Notes under the pieces: generated by a model | The model's input: only the letters and a program-made list of their open reading frames with translations | Database searches by the model: none | What the model was told of the DNA's origin: nothing | Virus record (IMG/VR): IMGVR_UViG_3300031867_000041 | Coordinates: 6,544-70,543 of that record | Reading direction: 5' to 3' (one strand) | Length of the DNA stretch: 64,000 bases | From: a virus | Taxonomy: Duplodnaviria > Caudoviricetes | Made by a program: the position numbers and the translations under genes | Shown here: in pieces, positions 2,997-54,082 of the stretch | Position numbering within the stretch: position 1 is the first letter of the stretch | Layout: every line of letters begins with the position of its first letter

Positions 2997-4508
2997 TTAT
3001 GTATCCGCTGTATCTCTAGTCCTGTCTCCAGAGTCTGTTAATTCATCGTCTGGAGTTTGTGGTCTTCCCGCTTTATCAGATTGAGTATACGAAGTAGACC
3101 ATGGAATAAACACATCACTAAGATGTAAAACAGATTCTTCTAAAAAGTTTAATGCTATTGTATCTTTTTCAGAAAAACCATTTAAAGTGTTATATGCCAG
3201 TTTTACTGGCAGACCTTTATCTCCAGCAGACATTAATTCTTCTTTATACTGTTCCTTAGTATATACAGTAACCGGAAAGAATTTAACCTTACATGGATCA
3301 CTAATAGTTAATTGTAATCTATGATTAACCCAACTTTGAATTTGGGGTAACAAAGAAGATATAGCGTACTCACTATTAGCAATACTTGCCATACGAAATG
3401 CAAATGTATTATTAATGGTTGCTCCGTTAAGCAGCTCGGCACCACCAGCAGTATTTAAAACAGTTTCAGTAGCTTTTGCAACTTTCGTAGTATCAGAAGC
3501 TGCATTATCTGGAAATGATATTTCGTTCAATTTTCCTGGAACAATCGCCGCCGACATATTCGGAGGGATAGCTTCGTCCACCATTTTATTAAAATAATCA
3601 ACTGCTAAATCAACATCAACGCGCCAGTCATCTGGGATATCTGTTCCGTCCAACGTTTCAAGCTCATACCAAATAAGCTTATATATTTCTTGCTCCGCTG
3701 CAACAGCTTGAATATCCTCTAGATCCAAAAGATTAATGATAGAATTAGACATTGGCATCAGAGGACCAATAATCGTTTCAATATCTTCACTACGATATTT
3801 ACAACATAAACTAAACTCTTCCGGCATTGGTTGCCATTTTTCTCTGGTAGATTCATAATCTCTGTATAATTGTTCAAATACTTCTGGAAAATACTCTATC
3901 AACTCTTGATGTCCACGCAAGTATGAACAATCAATGGCATAAGCAAACTCACCGGTCATATATTTACCCGTTATTCTTGCTGAATCAGCTGGCCATGGGA
4001 GAACAAAAACTCCATCGTCATCCTCAATCCAAACATTATAACTAACATCCTAAACAAAACATGTAAGTATAATTGGATAGAATTCCTATTGAAGTCTCAT
4101 TTTATCTAACTCATCAACAGTCTCCTAAAATGATTTCAATACTTTCTGTGGGTTATTTTCTTTTGTTAAATCATGATTCGGAATAACCGATCTACAATAC
4201 AAAACAAACATATTCGAGAAAAAAATACAAAGTCTAGCATATATCTACGATCTATAAAACAAATACCACGAAAGATTTCTTAATCTAGCCTCATTACCCA
4301 CAATATTTTGAAAATAACTACGCAATGTTTCTTTGTCAAAAACTCCAACATTACGAGTTGAATTTTTCGTAAAATCACGAAGTCTCTTAAAAGCTTCCTA
4401 CGATTCGGCAAATCTTTGTTTTAGAAAATCTTCATTGTATTTCTGAGCAAATTCCCTTCGCTCACTATTAGTTGGCGTCGCCTTAGACACCGTACTTTTA
4501 GTCGCCAA
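2997..4508 (-). CDS. Portal protein (YonE-like, 503 aa, five in-frame TAG)
   Basis: TTG start at 4508 after AAGGGGGTG. Frame is continuous with track ORF 2997..3959 when TAG is read as sense. Lies between terminase and protease. Confidence 0.8.
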
Positions 4509-4523
4509 TTGGCAACACCCCCT

Positions 4524-7500
4524 TTAAAACGAAGAAAACCGTCTGGCGGATCGTATTGTCAAACGGTTTACAAGATTATCATTATTTTGTTTCGGACGTT
4601 TAAGTTGGTCTTCACGCCTAGCCTACATTAAAGCGTAGCCAAGCATGCAGCAAACATAAGCACGGTCGTCATGCATTTTGTTCGCCTTTTCTGGGGTTAA
4701 TTCAAAAGAATCTTTGCCAGATTCTCTTTTTTTACGAATCATATTTACCAACTCTTCTTTGAGCGCATCTATATTAGCAAGCGCTATTTCGTCCCGCCAA
4801 TCTAATTTAATTGTTTTGGTTTTTACAGACTAAACCTTATTTAGTTCTTCTTTTAGTTTTTCTTCGAACTCCTTGCCAACAACTTTCTGTTTTTTTAATT
4901 TCTCTGTTATTTTATTTGTTTCTTCATCTAACAATTTCTAATCAATATCAAAAACAGTAAGATATCCTTTATGATCATAATTTGAAGTAAAACTAATTTT
5001 ATTCTAATTCATCATCTCAATCATTGCTTCATACATTATTGATTTAAACGCACTTGGGTTCATCATATGTAGTTTTCCTTGAATTGCATCTGGAAATCTC
5101 TTTACATATTCTTCTGAATAATCTTTATCAATAAGTCCTCTATGTTCTATTCCGGCTTTGTCAACCCAATTTTGCATAAGCATATCAGCAATTATTGGTC
5201 CACCTCCACCGGACCCAGCATCACAATAAATACCAAGTATATTATCATAATTATCAGTACCGCCATCATAGTCAAGAATCATTTGTCTTAGATATTCAAC
5301 CTAATCTGGGGTCTGCATTGGAGACTTTATCTTTTTGCCAACGTCAACAAGATTAACAAGATTTACTATACGCGCTTTCTTCTCGGTTTTTCCATCAGGA
5401 GTTGGAGAATCATAGCATTCACCAGCGAGAATGACCGAATTGTCGCGAAGTCTAGCCGGATCGTACAAAAGCCAAAATTTTTTATCACCAGTATCATTAC
5501 TATGAAGAGGTTTTCTTGTCTCCTCATTCCTTGTAATTACACCACGCTTAATAATAGCATCGGCGCCGGCTTCTGTTGTGAATTGACAATAATATTCACG
5601 CCTGGCTTTTTCTGGATTTGTCCTCATTTCAGACTCAACAGTTGAGCGAGAGAGAAGAGGTGTAATAACTTCTCCGTGAAGAGTTGGCTTAAATGCAAGT
5701 TCGCAATCAATATGAAGGACACAGTAATCTGGGTCTCCCATAATTTGACGCTTTGCGAAATCTCTATATAAAGCATAAAACTTTGTGTCTGTGCTAGAAG
5801 CAGAACTGATATAAAACTTTTGGTTTGGAATATTTGTAGCAAACGTTCTTTGACGTATTGGGTCAATCGACCTACCACTAGCATCCTTACCAGTCTTTAG
5901 GCTTTTGTTTACAATAGCAAAAGCAGAATAAACATTCATCATTTCTTCCGAAAGAAATCCAGATTCATCAAAAATAACGTTTCCTCTCATCAATCTGTTA
6001 TCTTAGAAGCTTTTTATCTTCTAATTCTTATGGTTATCCTTCCCATAAGTTCGGCATATCTTTTCACCTTCATCATTATATGGTCAGGTGGCGCTGACTC
6101 GTGGAGAGATTATATTCTATACAATAGTTTCACTCTCTATGCTCTGCCTGTGACTATGCTTTTAATCATAGCCTTCCAGTCGGGTTGGCATTCCAGCGTT
6201 CCCGTTTTCTTCAGCGCTTTAGTATTATAATCCACTTATTTCTAAGCGGCGAGGCGTTGAGGAATATATAAGTTTCACCTCTTTTTTTATCTATATTACT
6301 ATTCAGTGTCTACGTCATAGATCCATTATATACTTCGTAATTAAAGCCGTTTGACGAGTGGCTAAAGCCATCTCCGGCAGCATTCTTAATCTTTATCTCA
6401 TCTTTAAATATTTTTCCAGTAGAACCAGAAAATGTATCAATATTATCATTCGCGATCCGCTCCAGCGTTGTAAATGTCTATTCTGCCTGCGATCCAGAAC
6501 CAGATGCTATGTATGTCCAATAATTACAAAAACACATATCCTTCATCATAGTTTCCAAGTCAATGACCGTGCTATTATGTGTTACAGTATTTTTCTTCCC
6601 ACACAAAAACAGTTTTTCTTCACTATCTACTGAAATACATTTAGTTTTTACCGAATCAACTTTAACTATATTTACAATTTGCTTCCTTCGCTGTTTAGCG
6701 GGTAGATAATCTTTTAATCTATCAAGCTTTCTTGGTAACTTGAAACATGGCAGTTCTTTGCTAGGAGTAAATTTAAACCTATGCGCCTTAAATGTTTTGT
6801 CTCCACACTTTCGGTCGTATACTCCACATGTAAACTTAATCCCAAGGGATACCAATAACTTATAAAACCCATCACATATTTTTTCATGACAAACACTTTG
6901 AGTAAACTCTGCATATCCATCTTTAGAAATAGTACCATCTGTATCCATCAATCCACATAATAAATCTAATCTCTGTGACACGGAGCCATATAAGTACTCA
7001 TCTGGAATATGCTTATTCTCATATAAATTATTGGATTTTAACAACGTCACTAAGGGGATGTCATCATATCTATGTAATATTATTCGCTTATTATTCTTAG
7101 CATCATTAATAATTGATTTGATTTTATATCCGGTTTGTTCTATCGCTTTTATAATGTCATCCAAATCGGAATTGTGACATGTAATATAGCCCCCAGCAGA
7201 ACATCCATCTCCCAACCATAACCCTAATATATATGGATTTATATCATATTCTTTTTGAGGATGCATAAGTGGCAAACTCATTGGAACTGAATATCTAACA
7301 GCATGATAGTCTTTATCCCACTTATCACTGTAAGTTTTTCTATTTGGAATTAAATATGACGAAAATAACTCGCTTGTAGTTAACTCTTTTAATTCCTTCT
7401 TTTTTGAATAAACATCATAAACAGACCATATATGATCAGCATCGGCTATAATTTTCTCCTAATCAGAAAATGTAATCTCATAGCAATCATGATTAGTAAA

Positions 7501-9979: not shown

Positions 9980-10295
9980 CTCCCCGACTGGGACTCGAAC
10001 CCAGACATACCTGCTTCAAAGGCATATAACGGTTTTCCTACTACTCCATGTCACCATAGCCGACTTTCGTCGTTGTAGTCTGGACTATTTCTTCACCATA
10101 TGACATAATCACTTAGGTGTCCCCTATATAGTCTCTGTACATTTACGAAATAATCAATTTCGATTTAGCTCCTCGTTGTCTCAATATTATATTGAGAGTT
10201 TCGCGAATTAGGGGGAATTCACAATGAGACTTTCGTTCCCATGTGTCCAAATTAAGGCTGAGAGACCGGCGCGATACCAATTTCGCCATCGGGGA
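9980..10295 (-). tRNA. Intron-containing tRNA, predicted mature anticodon CUA (amber suppressor), long variable arm
   Basis: Acceptor TCCCCGA/TCGGGGA with G73; D arm GCG-AAATTGGTAT-CGC; T arm CTGGG-TTCGAGT-CCCAG. Joining exons at U|...G gives the 7-nt loop CU-CUA-AA. Confidence 0.8.
10037..10260 (-). mobile_element. Group I intron (224 nt) between anticodon positions 35 and 36
   Basis: P7 motifs CAGAGACTA and AAATAGTCC, P9 with CGAC-GAAA-GTCG tetraloop, IGS TTTGGACAC, terminal G. Confidence 0.85.
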
Positions 10296-24053: not shown

Positions 24054-24111
24054 TGAGCCGTCTGGGAATGTGTGTTCCCACTGATGAGTTCCAAAAGGAC
24101 GAAACGGCTCA
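24054..24111 (+). ncRNA. Hammerhead ribozyme (type III topology)
   Basis: TGAGCCGTC cleavage triplet; stem I TGGGAA/TTCCCA; CTGATGA core; stem II GTTC/GGAC; GAAA; stem III closed by CGGCTCA. Confidence 0.9.
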
Positions 24112-49643: not shown

Positions 49644-49719
49644 CCGCCATTAGCTCAGTTGGTTAGAGCGACGGCCTTATAAGCCGTGCCTGTCCTGGGT
49701 TCGAGTCCCAGATGGCGGA
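49644..49719 (+). tRNA. tRNA-Ile(UAU)
   Basis: CCGCCAT/ATGGCGG acceptor; ACGGC-CTTATAA-GCCGT anticodon arm. Confidence 0.9.
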
Positions 49720-49886
49720 TTATGCGTGGCATAATACGAGCGGTGGTTATTATGCGGATGAGTAACATGCACAGACTGGTTTGTTAATAAGCATTAAAGT
49801 GTGGTCGAAGGCCAAGACTGCCGCCAGTCGTTAATTGGAGTGCGAACTGTTCAGCCGTCGCTCCTAAAACATAACGGCAGAACTTT

Positions 49887-50007
49887 GGGAGTGTGAGCGC
49901 AGACAGCTGGTGTTAATAATTGTGTACGAAGTTATTAGCGAGTGTCGATGGCAACAGTCTGGTTACCCAGCAATCAGAAAACGAAGGTTCGAATCCTTCT
50001 GCTCCCG
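49887..50007 (+). ncRNA. tRNA-like RNA with ~50-nt structured expansion
   Basis: GGGAGTG/TGCTCCC acceptor and GAAGG-TTCGAAT-CCTTC T arm; 121 nt overall. Confidence 0.5.
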
Positions 50008-50010
50008 TTT

Positions 50011-50082
50011 CGGAACGTGGTTTAATTGGAAAAACGAGCCAGTGATGGTTATTTGATGCAGGTTCGAATCCTGTCGTTCCGA
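50011..50082 (+). ncRNA. tRNA-like RNA with 4-nt anticodon loop
   Basis: CGGAACG/CGTTCCG acceptor, GTTT/AAAC D stem, AGCCA-GTGA-TGGTT, canonical T arm. Confidence 0.6.
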
Positions 50083-50349
50083 CTATAGGTTGTTCAGGAG
50101 ACCTTCCTACGAGTGGTGGTCAGCCGTAGGTAAAAGCAAATCAAGAAAAGAAATCATTTTGACCACTGATTTCTGAGTACCGTGGCAGAAACATCGTATG
50201 AGATGGCTGCTAACAACTGATGGCATCTGGGAAAGACCGAAACGCGCGTTGCAACTCATTAATTGGTCTTACGTTTTAAGATCACGAATTTGTAATTCTA
50301 CTTGGAGAACAGAATTATTGTTACATTCTCATAAATAATTCACTCCAAA

Positions 50350-50463
50350 CGGAACATAGCTCAATTGGTAGAGCACTCATGACAAACTATTGTTAACAGT
50401 GTCTTTGTTAACAGATAACCAATAGTGAAATGGGAAATGCACGTTCGAGTCGTGCTGTTCCAT
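50350..50463 (+). ncRNA. tRNA-like RNA with a 49-nt structured anticodon loop
   Basis: GCTC-AATTGGTA-GAGC D arm; CTCAT/ATGGG stem enclosing nested hairpins; GCACG-TTCGAGT-CGTGC T arm. Confidence 0.65.
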
Positions 50464-50580
50464 TACCGAAGTATTCTAGATAAGCTTCGGAAAACACAAA
50501 GGTACTCTGAGACGGGTTATGAGCTTAAACGACCCCGGATGGTGCGCAAACAATACCATCAAACACGGCCTTTGTGGTAT

Positions 50581-50651
50581 AGGGCATTCGCCAAGCGGTA
50601 AGGCCCAGGAATTTGACTCCTGTATCATCCGTTCGAATCGGATATGCCCTG
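50581..50651 (+). tRNA. tRNA-Gln(UUG)
   Basis: GCCAAGCGGTAAGGC D arm; CAGGA-ATTTGAC-TCCTG; G73. Confidence 0.9.
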
Positions 50652-50778
50652 CTCGGATAAAAAGCGAATTTTATCCGAAACGTTAGTCACGTTAAAATAC
50701 TATCGCCGGTTTGGCAGTTCCGACAAAAACTGCCATTAAAAAGCAAGTAAACATTATAATATTAAAGGAGAACTGAAT

Positions 50779-51042
50779 ATGCAGAATGAACTTTATGTTG
50801 GCATGGTGTGCAAAGCAAAGTTTTCGGTAAGTCCAGACAGAACAATTTATAAGGATACGTGGTTACCAATACGCATCATTAAAGAGAATAAATATTGGTG
50901 GGACGCAGAAGTTCTGGAGCACGAAAGTCCGCATCCGCATTTTGGACCATCAAAGCCATATCAGATGTCCATAAACAAACATGCTCTTAAAGTTGGAGAG
51001 ATCCAGATTAAAGATATTCATACTAAAAAGAAATCTGCATAA
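50779..51042 (+). CDS. Hypothetical protein (87 aa) within the tRNA cluster
   Basis: AAAGGAG RBS; track ORF. Confidence 0.7.
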   Translation: MQNELYVGMVCKAKFSVSPDRTIYKDTWLPIRIIKENKYWWDAEVLEHESPHPHFGPSKPYQMSINKHALKVGEIQIKDIHTKKKSA

Positions 51043-51118
51043 TAAATTATCGACATGTTCTTTTTCTTTTGTTATAGACTCCTTTCTTAACGCTTGGCGG
51101 AGCGTAAAACCGCCATCT

Positions 51119-51205
51119 GCGGAGTTGGCAGAGTTTGGTTTAATGCACCGGCCTTGAAAACCGGAGATGGGAAACCATCCAGAGGTTCGAATCCTCTACT
51201 CCGCG
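51119..51205 (+). tRNA. tRNA-Ser(UGA)
   Basis: GCGGAGT/ACTCCGC acceptor, G73, loop CTTGAAA, variable arm GATGG-GAAA-CCATC. Confidence 0.9.
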
Positions 51206-51312
51206 CTAGGCATTAGTAATAATATTAATGCCGAACTCCTTTGCGCGTGGGCAAGAAATATGGTAGTTTTTCATGGACAACCGTTTGCCAGTATCGGATA
51301 AACTGGCATCGT

Positions 51313-51395
51313 GGGGCATTGGCGAAATAGGCAGACGCTTCGGACTTAAAATCCGATGACTTTTAGTCGTATGGGTTCAAATCCCATATGCCCTA
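51313..51395 (+). tRNA. tRNA-Leu(UAA)
   Basis: TCGGA-CTTAAAA-TCCGA, long variable arm, A73. Confidence 0.9.
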
Positions 51396-51404
51396 CTTCG
51401 AGGG

Positions 51405-51590
51405 AGGCTCATATCCTCTGTGCGAACATATAGTAACCATTAAAATCGCCGTAGGTTCGCACTGGTATTACCGATGGAAAGGCATTTGATTTTAGACAAA
51501 TCTCATTCCTATCGCCGTCGGAACTGTACATTGACACGTAATTGCATAACGGGAAGATGCAGATACATATTTGTTTTGTGCATATTTGCT
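51405..51590 (+). promoter_or_regulatory. Leader/tracr-like element A
   Basis: CTGTGCGAAC...GTTCGCACTGG inverted repeat; anti-repeat ATCTCATTCC at 51500-51509; ends TTTGCT at repeat 1. Confidence 0.7.
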
Positions 51591-51739
51591 GATGTAATTT
51601 GCGGATGTGTATAGAATGAGATGTAAACTAAAATCTGATGGACTGTTAACATACCCGATGTAATTCACGGATGTGTATGGAATGAGATTGGGGTAGCTAT
51701 CAGAGTATTCGTGAGGCTACAGATGTAATTCGCAGATGC
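51591..51739 (+). CRISPR. CRISPR mini-array A (2 full repeats plus 1 truncated, 2 spacers)
   Basis: 32-nt GATGTAATTYRCGGATGTGTATRGAATGAGAT at 51591 and 51657, partial at 51722; spacers 34 and 33 nt. Confidence 0.75.
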
Positions 51740-51761
51740 ACACAAAACAGAAAGGAATTAT

Positions 51762-53171
51762 ATGCAGTATACCAAAGTTACAAATTATTCATTAAAATGT
51801 AGGCTTTACCCGAATAAGACTCAGCAGAAAAAAATTGATGATATTCTATATGGATTAAGAGTTGCATATAATACGACAGCCTGGGAAATTGTCCACGGAA
51901 ATGAAAGTATTTGTGTGCCGGGTAAAAAAAATCAATCGGATTTCTATCCAGATTTTAATAAGATGTACAAAGCGGATTGGCTAGAACAATTAAGAAAGAC
52001 TCATGAGATTGTAAATGCTGTACCTCCAAACGCTCTTTCCGGTACAAACGGAATTATGTTAAACAACCTTAAAAAGTCATATGAGAATTTTCATCCAGAT
52101 ACGAATGTTCAAGCAAAAACAAGAACCGGCAAACTAAAATTTACAAAATCTGGCAAACCAGTAATGAAGAAAACCGATAAACCAGTAAAGGTTTCGTGTG
52201 ATAAATGGCAACCGACGTATTATTCAAATAAACACCCAAAGAGGTCTTTCTTTATACAGGTGGAAGCAAATCGGTTTAGTTTTCCAGAAAATTCGAAATC
52301 TGTTAAAGTTGATTTAACAAAAAATAAAGGAAATAGCTCAATGAAAGATTTTGGAGCTATGAAAATTCGTGGATGGAGATTTGATTTATTATATGGAGAT
52401 GATCAGAAATCAACATTTACAGACTGTTTTGATGATAGAAAATTAAGTGTATTTATTTCTAAAGATAATGTAGGTGATTATTATATTTCCGTGAGAATCC
52501 CGGAAGTTTGGATACCTGTAAAAGACACCAAAGAACAAAGGGAACTTGGTGTAGATGTTGGCGTTCATGATGTCGCCATAACTTCGGACGGAACTAAATA
52601 TGAGAATAAGAAATTTCTCGAAAAAGAAATTCAACATAAAAAAGCATTGAATAGACGTGTGAGCAGAAGACAAGGTTGGTCAAATATTAAATTTAGAGAA
52701 GCTCACAAAGAAAACAATGACTTGATGCCGTCGAAGAGATACGAGGAAACGAAATTAAAGTTGGCAAAACTTGATCGGAAAATTGCTAGGAGGCGAGATG
52801 ATTATAACCATTGTGTAACAAGAGATATTGTTAACAAAGCATCATTTATTGGAATTGAGTCTCTTGCTGTGAAAGATATGTTGCAAGATAAGTATATGGC
52901 CAGGGCGTTAAGTGATGCGGCTATGTACGATATATTATCAAAATTGAAATACAAAATGAATCGTAAGGGTGGGGAGATTGTTTCAATTGGCAAATGGGAG
53001 CCGTCCAGTCAGTTGTGTCATGTTTGCGGATATCAAAACAAACTAATTAAAGATACAAGAATAAGAGACTGGACATGTCCGAAATGTGGAACATATCATG
53101 ACAGAGATATAAACGCTGCCATTAATATATTAAATATGGCAAAAGCAAAACAAGAAGAAAAAACAATATAA
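51762..53171 (+). CDS. TnpB/Cas12f-like RNA-guided RuvC nuclease (469 aa), CRISPR-associated
   Basis: N-terminal LKCRLYPNKTQ; RuvC-I GVDVG, RuvC-II IGIESL, Zn finger CHVC/CPKC, RuvC-III HDRDINAA; no tnpA nearby; flanked by arrays. Confidence 0.9.
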   Translation: MQYTKVTNYSLKCRLYPNKTQQKKIDDILYGLRVAYNTTAWEIVHGNESICVPGKKNQSDFYPDFNKMYKADWLEQLRKTHEIVNAVPPNALSGTNGIMLNNLKKSYENFHPDTNVQAKTRTGKLKFTKSGKPVMKKTDKPVKVSCDKWQPTYYSNKHPKRSFFIQVEANRFSFPENSKSVKVDLTKNKGNSSMKDFGAMKIRGWRFDLLYGDDQKSTFTDCFDDRKLSVFISKDNVGDYYISVRIPEVWIPVKDTKEQRELGVDVGVHDVAITSDGTKYENKKFLEKEIQHKKALNRRVSRRQGWSNIKFREAHKENNDLMPSKRYEETKLKLAKLDRKIARRRDDYNHCVTRDIVNKASFIGIESLAVKDMLQDKYMARALSDAAMYDILSKLKYKMNRKGGEIVSIGKWEPSSQLCHVCGYQNKLIKDTRIRDWTCPKCGTYHDRDINAAINILNMAKAKQEEKTI

Positions 53172-53184
53172 TAAATTAAATCGT

Positions 53185-53373
53185 GTGAGGCTCAGATACA
53201 CTGTGCGAACTTGCAGTAATCATAAATTATCTGATAGGTTCGCACTGGCATTGGCCGTAATTAAAATGATTTTCATATCTTTAATGCAAATCATTATTGT
53301 TACGGATCACCATACGGGGTACATTTTGCTGATGTGGTAAGGAAATCTCAATCCATTTTTGTGTATTTTTGCT
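53185..53373 (+). promoter_or_regulatory. Leader/tracr-like element B
   Basis: Same inverted repeat (53201, 53238); anti-repeat TCTCAATCCAT at 53346-53356; ends TTTGCT. Confidence 0.7.
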
Positions 53374-53669
53374 GACGCAATACGTACGAGCGTATGGACT
53401 GAGAGATCCAGTAAAATCAAGGATTCCGAGATTTCGAGGACGTAATACGTACGAGCGTATGGACTGAGAGTGGTGTTGACCCTTGATATAACCGGTCCAT
53501 TATGACGTAATGCGTACGAGCGTATGGACTGAGAGGTTCGAGAAATTTCGAGGGTTTTCGAGGAGTGAAAGACGCAATACGTAAGAGCGTATGGACTGAG
53601 AGATATAGTGATATCCGTACAGTTACAAATGTCGCTTGACGCAATACGTACGAGCGTATGGACTGAGAG
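53374..53669 (+). CRISPR. CRISPR array B (5 repeats, 4 spacers)
   Basis: 32-nt GACGCAATACGTACGAGCGTATGGACTGAGAG at 53374, 53439, 53504, 53571, 53638; spacers 33, 33, 35, 35 nt. Confidence 0.95.
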
Positions 53670-53727
53670 GTATATGGTAGCAAAAGACGAGTTCTATAAG
53701 AATATATAATTAAACAAAATATGTTGG

Positions 53728-53917
53728 CGTGAGACTCAACCACGCTGTGCGAAGTATAAGCTAACACATATTTGCAAGTATGTTCGCACTGGCATTGACC
53801 GTAATTTAAATGGTTGCTGTATTTGACAATAACCATTATTGTTGCGGTAGTCATATATAATGTATGTATATTGCTCAATTCGCGGTTGAAATACGGAAAT
53901 ATTTATGTAGTTTTGCT
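53728..53917 (+). promoter_or_regulatory. Leader/tracr-like element C
   Basis: Same inverted repeat (53745, 53782), strongly similar to leader B; anti-repeat CTCAATTCGC at 53874-53883; ends TTTGCT. Confidence 0.7.
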
Positions 53918-54082
53918 GAATCGATATACACATGTATGTGAATTGAGATCCATATTCCGAGGTAGGAGAGTATGATACATCTACGAATCAATATACACAT
54001 GTATGTGAATTGAGATAATTCTATTCGCTTTCTTTTTCCCCCCGTAAGCCGAATCAATATACACACGTATGTGAATTGAAGT
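53918..54082 (+). CRISPR. CRISPR mini-array C (3 repeats, 2 spacers)
   Basis: 32-nt GAATCAATATACACATGTATGTGAATTGAGAT at 53918, 53985, 54051; spacers 35 and 34 nt. Confidence 0.9.

Follow-up and report, generated by a model that had tools for sequence, protein, structure and literature searches.

Organization of the locus

The window analysed here, a stretch of 64,000 nucleotides (nt; positions 6,544 to 70,543 of the IMG/VR virus record IMGVR_UViG_3300031867_000041), is part of a 70.5-kb record of a virus of the Caudoviricetes, which is classed as linear and has an estimated completeness of 41%. The record carries genes for a DNA polymerase, a primase-helicase, an exonuclease and an integrase as well as many tRNA genes, and phage genes flank the locus studied in this paper (Table 1). 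The locus consists of a gene, here called tranC, for a 469-amino acid (aa) nuclease derived from TnpB, and of three guide modules, each made up of a conserved scaffold-like element and a short CRISPR array. TranC stands for transposon-CRISPR intermediate, a name given to lineages of TnpB that have gained CRISPR arrays and whose guide is divided between a tracrRNA (trans-activating CRISPR RNA) and a crRNA (CRISPR RNA) (Jin et al., Cell 2025, doi 10.1016/j.cell.2025.09.004, cited in PMC13565253).

A preliminary description, made from the letters of this stretch, had placed one array upstream and two downstream of the gene, and all three were found at these positions on the strand of the gene. 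Its count of eight spacers of 33-35 nt, all distinct, between repeats of 32 nt is also correct, and a possible ninth guide can be added, as the last repeat of array B is intact and is followed by what may be the fifth guide of that array. The repeats in the window end with ...TGAGAT or ...TGAGAG. The degenerate third repeat of array A extends as far as the ribosome-binding site from which the nuclease would be translated, and in the terminal repeat of array C the 3' pairing strand is broken (TTGAAGT). The absence of cas1, cas2 and tnpA, noted earlier for the window, extends to the whole 70.5-kb record: no Cas1, Cas2 or Y1 TnpA was found in this 41%-complete fragment, cas1 and cas2 being the only cas genes looked for. 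A 153-aa open reading frame on the minus strand (53417-53878), which fully overlaps array B and scaffold C, is most likely spurious.

Table 1. Features of the tranC locus, numbered from the first letter of the window
Feature	Position	Strand	Description or basis
tRNA-Leu(UAA)	51313..51396	+	last gene of a co-oriented tRNA cluster; ARAGORN, Rfam
Scaffold A (tracrRNA/omega-RNA-like, predicted)	51400..51590	+	alignment and consensus fold, pair counts, duplex energy
Mini-array A	51591..51753	+	two full 32-nt repeats, spacers of 34 and 33 nt, degenerate third repeat
Repeats of array A	starts 51591, 51657; degenerate third 51722	+
tranC gene	51762..53171	+	469-aa TnpB-derived RuvC nuclease; RuvC triad D265/E366/D449 and CxxC..CxxC zinc finger
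Scaffold B (predicted)	53183..53373	+	alignment, consensus fold, pair counts, duplex energy
Mini-array B	53374..53703	+	five 32-nt repeats; four spacers of 33, 33, 35 and 35 nt
Repeats of array B	starts 53374, 53439, 53504, 53571, 53638; last ends 53669	+
Scaffold C (predicted)	53727..53917	+	alignment, consensus fold, pair counts, duplex energy
Mini-array C	53918..54082	+	two full repeats, spacers of 35 and 34 nt, altered terminal repeat
Repeats of array C	starts 53918, 53985; third 54051	+

Assignment of the nuclease

The protein had been described as of the IS605 TnpB type with an intact RuvC D/E/D triad and zinc finger, and this stands: it matches the Pfam families OrfB_IS605 and Cas12f1-like_TNB, scores 191 bits with NCBIfam guided_TnpB (cut-off 100), and in an alignment of 24 homologs the residues D265, E366 and D449 as well as C419, C422, C439 and C442 are invariant. 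With NCBIfam IS200_TnpB it reaches 209 bits, which is under the cut-off of 425 of that family. When all solved structures were searched by sequence, the best match was LaTranC (9jfo/9jfq, E 7e-77), followed by ISDra2 TnpB (E 6e-36), and the matches to Cas12f were weak and confined to the C-terminal TNB/RuvC part (E 6e-8 to 1e-6). D265 is aligned with the D of the GLDVG motif of LaTranC, which is D253 in full-length numbering once the 5-residue offset between the two deposited LaTranC chains is taken into account; the D253A mutant of LaTranC is an inactive enzyme.

An AlphaFold2 model of the protein, built with the 24 homologs as input, has a predicted local distance difference test score of 87. 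In a Foldseek search with this model LaTranC again came top, with template modelling (TM) scores of 0.77/0.75 and 34% identity, while the scores were 0.59/0.75 for TnpB, about 0.5 for Cas12f (0.52) and Cas12p, and about 0.45 for Cas-lambda. Since LaTranC is the closest solved relative by both sequence and structure, ahead of TnpB and Cas12f, the protein is assigned on sequence and on the predicted model to the published TranC family, and not to Cas12f or to the TnpB of IS200/IS605 elements. The possible new transition from TnpB to Cas12 that had been suggested for this locus therefore gives way to membership of a published family, with LaTranC as the closest solved relative.

Predicted scaffolds and their pairing with the repeats

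Exactly 189 nt of conserved sequence lie ahead of each first repeat, starting at about 51402, 53185 and 53729, and the stem-2 motif of this element has three sites in the whole record, all at these modules. The preliminary description had noted that each array has its own upstream element, of about 185 nt, which is confirmed at 189 nt each; it had also taken the elements for leaders, and this is replaced here by a role as guide scaffolds. The alignment that bears on this comprised 17 cassettes (scaffold plus first repeat) from 12 loci, i.e. the window and 11 related ones. Folded without constraints by RNAalifold, it gave the strongly conserved hairpin GTGCGAA...TTCGCAC, a covarying stem 3 and three scaffold-repeat contacts. 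In the first, repeat nt 4-14 form 11 bp with the anti-repeat; in the second, repeat nt 21-24 form 4 bp with a scaffold strand just past stem 3; and in the third, repeat nt 26-30, directly before the spacer, form 5 bp with the 5' hairpin loop (columns 13-17). The stem of the 5' hairpin was added as a pseudoknot before the pairs were counted. Standard pairs occupy 90.3% of 712 cells, and a slide of the 3' partners by 1-3 columns lowers this share to 35-47%. In 32 of the 42 pairs both sides have changed, and none of 500 shuffles matched any observed measure, a control that is not to be read as a probability because the sample is phylogenetically related.

In scaffold A, stem 1 (51400-51418) is followed by stem 2 (GTGCGAA..TTCGCAC), stem 3 and the anti-repeat at about 51535-51547. 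The hairpin loops CTCAT (51408-51412), CTCAG (53191-53195) and CTCAA (53735-53739) of scaffolds A, B and C pair with ATGAG at the 3' end of repeat A, CTGAG of repeat B and TTGAG of repeat C, respectively. Altogether 14 complementary forms of this contact were found, 13 of them full 5-bp matches and the one in the related locus L008 of 4 bp; the forms in the relatives include TACTC/GAGTA, TTAGC/GCTAA, TCCAT/ATGGA, CTCGC/GCGAG, TCTAT/ATAGA, TTCAA/TTGAA, CCCAA/TTGGG, AGAGT/GCTCT and TCTGT/GCAGA. The duplex energies of the anti-repeat regions were -18.2 kcal/mol with the own repeat versus -14.8 and -8.6 kcal/mol with the others for scaffold A, -19.6 versus -10.2 and -10.0 kcal/mol for scaffold B, and -17.9 versus -11.1 and -15.9 kcal/mol for scaffold C. 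By duplex energy, each scaffold of the window favours its own repeat. The preference is moderate, and since a cruder count over alignment columns does not tell C from B, strict orthogonality is not claimed.

Based on the consensus fold and the compensatory pairing with the repeats, the 189-nt elements are predicted to be scaffolds of the tracrRNA/omega-RNA type that base-pair with the repeats, and the internal differences among the three repeat types appear to mirror those in their own anti-repeats. In each module the scaffold continues without a break into the first repeat, so that the unit nearest to it would be a natural single guide, and the later units would need the scaffold in trans. 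Anti-repeats marked by eye near 51500, 53345 and 53875 were unsupported by the alignment, and the RNAalifold contacts stand instead. A search of Rfam for the scaffold and the repeats, up to an E-value of 1, returned no family.

Spacers and searches for their targets

Array B, when compared by blastn with 50,697 GenBank phages, gave chance matches only (E about 1). Exact seeds of 23-25 nt from spacers B2, A1 and C1 found no match in IMG/VR, nor did that of spacer B4 in JGI metagenome contigs or that of spacer A2 in 185,579 species genomes. No self-target was present in the window at up to 8 mismatches, and a comparison of the arrays of 20 loci with the other fetched loci gave no target.

Spacers B1 (53406-53438), B3 (53536-53570) and C1 (53950-53984) share TTCGAG/TCCGAG motifs, and spacer B3 contains three copies at 10-nt spacing; the three spacers may come from one repetitive, iteron-like target region. 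The iteron-like TTTCGAG pattern taken from spacer B3 found no target in IMG/VR.

Relatives and the history of the modules

For comparison we used 11 of many metagenomic homologs, 10 IMG/VR contigs and one contig of a metagenome-assembled genome (MAG). The layout with three cassettes, which the preliminary description had proposed to look for in homologs, is conserved in L001, whose protein is 77% identical: it has one module upstream and two downstream as in the window, and its spacers are entirely different. L003 and L007 have one module on each side of the gene, L019 has two tandem modules downstream, and L172 and L012 have an upstream module, to which L012 adds a scaffold remnant downstream of the gene. 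A downstream module only is found in L004, L008, L009, L010, L011, L013-L018, L170, L171 and L090. L006 (4590-4738) has no array but a single scaffold with one repeat and a guide of 28 nt, and directly after this single guide comes a tRNA whose anticodon is UUA, a predicted ochre suppressor.

The protein tree joins all 20 array- or scaffold-linked proteins in a single clade (support 100/100) that is separate from three phage TnpBs of the ordinary kind, and the loci with several modules are scattered within it. In the scaffold tree, module A of the window groups with module A of L001, modules B and C, from either phage, fall together in a second group, and the two modules of L003 are each other's nearest relatives. 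From these groupings we conclude that the modules were duplicated locally several times, which bears out the earlier view of duplicated and diverged guide cassettes.

All 19 array- or scaffold-linked relatives are on phage-like or short contigs, and only one of the best 80 matches in the 185,579 species-representative genomes is a full-length relative, located on a 4-kb MAG contig; the clade is essentially phage-borne in the data reached. GenBank phages contain no close relative, the best match having 30% identity and such matches being annotated as transposases. In IMG/VR none was found by a single-protein pattern search, and a profile search gave relatives of up to 43% identity.

Several loci have further peculiarities. 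L170 (138-4293) and L171 (509-4287) are temperate-phage contigs in which the homolog lies directly past a cro-like helix-turn-helix gene of the lysogeny switch, with genes for a CI-like repressor and for an integrase or resolvase on the opposite side, and its expression may go along with that of the early or immunity genes. In L010, L011, L013 and L014 (at about 4480-4520), which make up a more distant subclade, the scaffold is about 55 nt shorter and abuts a diverged first repeat without a separate anti-repeat segment. Array C of L001 (2642-2912) has spacers of 18 and 25 nt amid those of 34 nt, and the arrays of L001 B, L004 and L009 have heterogeneous repeats; these irregularities look like slow decay or recombination rather than recent insertion by Cas1-Cas2.

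Likeness to type I-C repeats

Published type I-C repeats consist of GTCGC, a GC-rich hairpin and GTGGATTGAAA(C/T), with repeats of 31-33 nt and spacers of 33-37 nt, and the type I-C protospacer adjacent motif (PAM) is 5' TTC/TTN, TTN and CTC having been reported for one such system. Type I-C arrays are thus similar in repeat and spacer length to the arrays studied here, the repeat 3' end ...GGATTGAAAT is common to them and the relatives L010-L019, and TTC, the PAM of LaTranC, is among the PAMs reported for type I-C. The later repeats of L010, L011 and L014 start with GTCGC and end with GGATTGAAAT, and only a similar 3' end, ...ATTGAAAT, is seen in the repeats of L013-L019. The L010 repeat agrees at 25 of 32 positions with a Bifidobacterium repeat of I-C form, which is itself untyped in its table, where 33-nt versions are typed I-C. 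On the other hand, the window repeats agree with a type I-C example at 16-17 of 32 positions (8-10 of the last 12) and do not qualify as members of type I-C arrays; unlike type I-C, the locus lacks the I-C hairpin, its repeats pair with a TnpB-type scaffold, and there is no cas1 or cas2 in the record. A search for Cas8c in the MAG that holds L090 gave no match, and the control genomes likewise gave none.

This likeness fits an origin from type I-C arrays or continued type I-C adaptation, and proves neither. It is conceivable, although we think it rather improbable, that the arrays descend from or mimic type I-C arrays and that the Cas1-Cas2-Cas4 of a host type I-C system loads TTC-flanked spacers into them in trans, while the phage duplicates the modules, and compensatory drift makes them partly orthogonal and guards the nuclease gene against deletion by direct-repeat recombination. 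If true, this would be a route of guide diversification without phage-encoded adaptation genes.

Interpretation of the locus

We consider it likely that the locus is a phage-encoded TranC system with three paralogous scaffold-plus-array guide modules, in agreement with the earlier notion of a compact, phage-borne, TnpB-derived system of type V-like character. An ancestral single omega RNA (reRNA) would have been split into a scaffold, acting as tracrRNA, and array-derived crRNAs. Each of the three same-strand modules, one upstream and two downstream of the gene, would provide a 189-nt scaffold joined directly to its mini-array, and the scaffold would hold the 32-nt repeat at three places, i.e. 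by the anti-repeat, the short helix and the loop of the 5' hairpin. The loop contact beside the guide would be a pseudoknot, resembling in this respect TnpB omega RNA. A pseudoknot of like kind is named in the guide RNA of Cas12p, another TnpB-derived nuclease. The nuclease would use the scaffold of a module with a crRNA from the array of the same module, and the complex formed by these RNAs and the protein would cleave DNA in which a match to the spacer of 33-35 nt lies beside a 5' motif. The modules would have arisen by local duplication, followed by drift with compensating changes, such that each scaffold prefers its own repeats, and the targets would be the DNA of competing phages or mobile elements.

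Homology, architecture, covariation and recurrence in relatives are the demonstrated part of this reading; the expression and processing of the RNAs, the cleavage of DNA and the role in conflict are inferred. Among the points that weigh against it is the failure to find a protospacer with any of the spacers tried, by which no target and hence no PAM could be derived. The kinship of the cassettes limits the force of the shuffle control. A count over alignment columns gives scaffold C 17 of 20 pairs with repeat B versus 16 of 20 with its own repeat, and cross-pairing between modules would be partly excluded at most. Finally, consensus scans found promoter-like and terminator-like sites in the locus to be not commoner than in shuffled sequence.

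The same machinery could serve homing or gene drive: co-infecting related phages without the locus or allele would be cut and recombinational repair would copy the locus in, which would extend the ancestral element-retention role of TnpB. The TnpB ancestry of the protein, the variable phage sites of the locus (in tRNA clusters or beside a cro-like gene), the lack of an adaptation module, and the small, slowly decaying arrays, with heterogeneous repeats and odd spacer lengths in L001, are in line with such a role. However, the spacers of 20 loci match neither the loci of the other fetched relatives nor the window outside the arrays, there are no self-targets, and the present evidence is equally compatible with plain exclusion of competitors; we regard homing as unlikely.

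The two remaining explanations separate the arrays from the nuclease or deprive them of a guide function. If the arrays were virus-borne mini-arrays or RNA decoys for the type I-C machinery of the host, beside a TnpB gene that is an unrelated insertion sequence (IS) remnant, then the 32-nt repeats and 33-35-nt spacers, the form GTCGC...GTGGATTGAAAT of relatives' repeats and the agreement of L010 with the Bifidobacterium repeat would be expected. Yet the repeats covary with a scaffold that always adjoins the nuclease gene, scaffold or array and protein travel together across the clade with 100/100 support, the nuclease gene is intact and conserved, the GC-rich hairpin has been replaced by sequence complementary to the anti-repeat, and the window repeats are far from the I-C example, at 16-17 of 32 positions. 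Service to a host type I-C system is therefore very improbable, above all on account of the scaffold covariation and the lost hairpin. An ordinary TnpB element of the IS200/IS605 type, whose arrays are decayed tandem copies of its right end without guide function, would agree with the placement of the protein in the TnpB superfamily by Pfam and NCBIfam and with the omega-RNA-like single repeat and guide of L006. It is hardly tenable against the absence of TnpA, the IS200_TnpB score below its cut-off, spacers that are unique and of regular length, and arrays of differing spacer content kept in 19 related loci; nor does the single full-length sequence among the best 80 matches in the species genomes look like a spreading element.

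Setting beside tRNA genes

In the window and in several relatives, the tranC locus lies at the end of or within a co-oriented phage tRNA cluster, the coordinates of which are 49644-51396 in the window, 2246-2979 and 4650-4967 in L006, 1759-2966 in L008, 1290-2645 in L172 and 1521-4119 in L003. The gap between the 3' end of tRNA-Leu and stem 1 of scaffold A is 3 nt, and in L006 and L008 the end of a tRNA is 22-35 nt ahead of the nuclease start codon. The 5' end of scaffold A could be set by processing of the tRNA-Leu 3' end, and tRNA processing may define RNA ends at the borders of the locus; from the arrangement of the genes, it is plausible that the locus is co-transcribed with the tRNA cluster and processed at its borders. 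Elsewhere in the window, a group I intron and a type III hammerhead ribozyme were detected by Rfam at gathering score, at 10058-10270 on the minus strand and 24055-24110 on the plus strand, respectively.

Novelty and significance

The enzyme family is known. As far as checked, the multi-module layout was not found described in the accessible literature, and the locus figures of Jin et al. 2025 may show loci with several arrays. With the same reservation, what is new here are compensated tracrRNA/repeat sets in several modules, one of them upstream of the gene, their repeated independent origin, and the occurrence in the same phage clade of loci that range from a single guide up to three modules. 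TranC systems have been presented as living intermediates on the way from TnpB to type V, with the splitting of one guide RNA into tracrRNA and crRNA as the key event; in this clade the putative stages stand side by side, i.e. a single contiguous guide (L006), a scaffold with an array, and two or three duplicated modules. The modules also supply, for a single nuclease of 469 aa, a natural collection of tracrRNA/crRNA pairs that covary, which would be useful for locating key RNA contacts and for the design of orthogonal scaffolds. The I-C-like repeats of the relatives and the TTC PAM of LaTranC raise the question of how arrays without cas1 and cas2 gain spacers. If the spacers target other phages, the locus would add one more case to the RNA-guided weapons that phages carry in gut viromes.

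Comparison with known systems

The closest known system is that of LaTranC, for which the structures 9jfo, 9jfp and 9jfq have been deposited in the PDB and whose 5' motif is TTC. In common with LaTranC and other TranC systems, the locus has a TnpB-derived RuvC nuclease of monomer size, an adjacent short array whose repeats measure about 32 nt, a guide composed of separate tracrRNA and crRNA (here predicted in silico), and neither tnpA nor adaptation genes. TranC is further marked by DNA cleavage with guides of both the CRISPR RNA and the reRNA type, to which the only pointer in this locus is that scaffold and first repeat are joined. The repeat length fits the 32-36 nt reported for TranC clades 3 and 11; one survey kept only effectors located upstream of their array. 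The window protein differs from LaTranC in being only about 34% identical and in having 469 instead of 574 aa, as it stops about where the C-terminal extension of LaTranC, of about 95 aa, begins; furthermore, its system is phage-borne and has three modules, of which one lies upstream of the gene and every one has a compensated repeat of its own.

ISDra2 TnpB (PDB 8h1j, 8exa) shares with the window protein the RuvC and zinc-finger core and a guide located 3' of a structured scaffold, and L006, with one scaffold, one repeat and one guide, resembles its omega RNA or reRNA arrangement. In contrast to ISDra2 TnpB, the locus has no TnpA and no transposon ends, its scaffold lies outside the open reading frame, and it has several array guides, for which the scaffold would act in trans. 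Nor does it agree with IS200/IS605 elements in general, as there is no Y1 transposase, the IS200_TnpB score is below the cut-off and the gene is single-copy in the record; the omega RNA of these elements overlaps the 3' end of the gene, whereas scaffold B begins 12 nt past the nuclease stop codon and would feed an array. Cas12f (type V-F) is also set apart, by the weak and partial sequence match, the TM score of about 0.5 and the absence of Cas1 and Cas2.

Other small TnpB-like or Cas12 nucleases with arrays and without an adaptation module are also carried by phages, namely CauTranC9 (preprint 10.64898/2026.03.27.714800), the Cas12p 'hacker' (preprint 10.1101/2025.01.20.633832) and Cas-lambda, and they have been proposed to act against competing elements. 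They belong to different protein clades, and in the literature consulted several diverged modules, each of a tracrRNA and an array, are not described for any of them.

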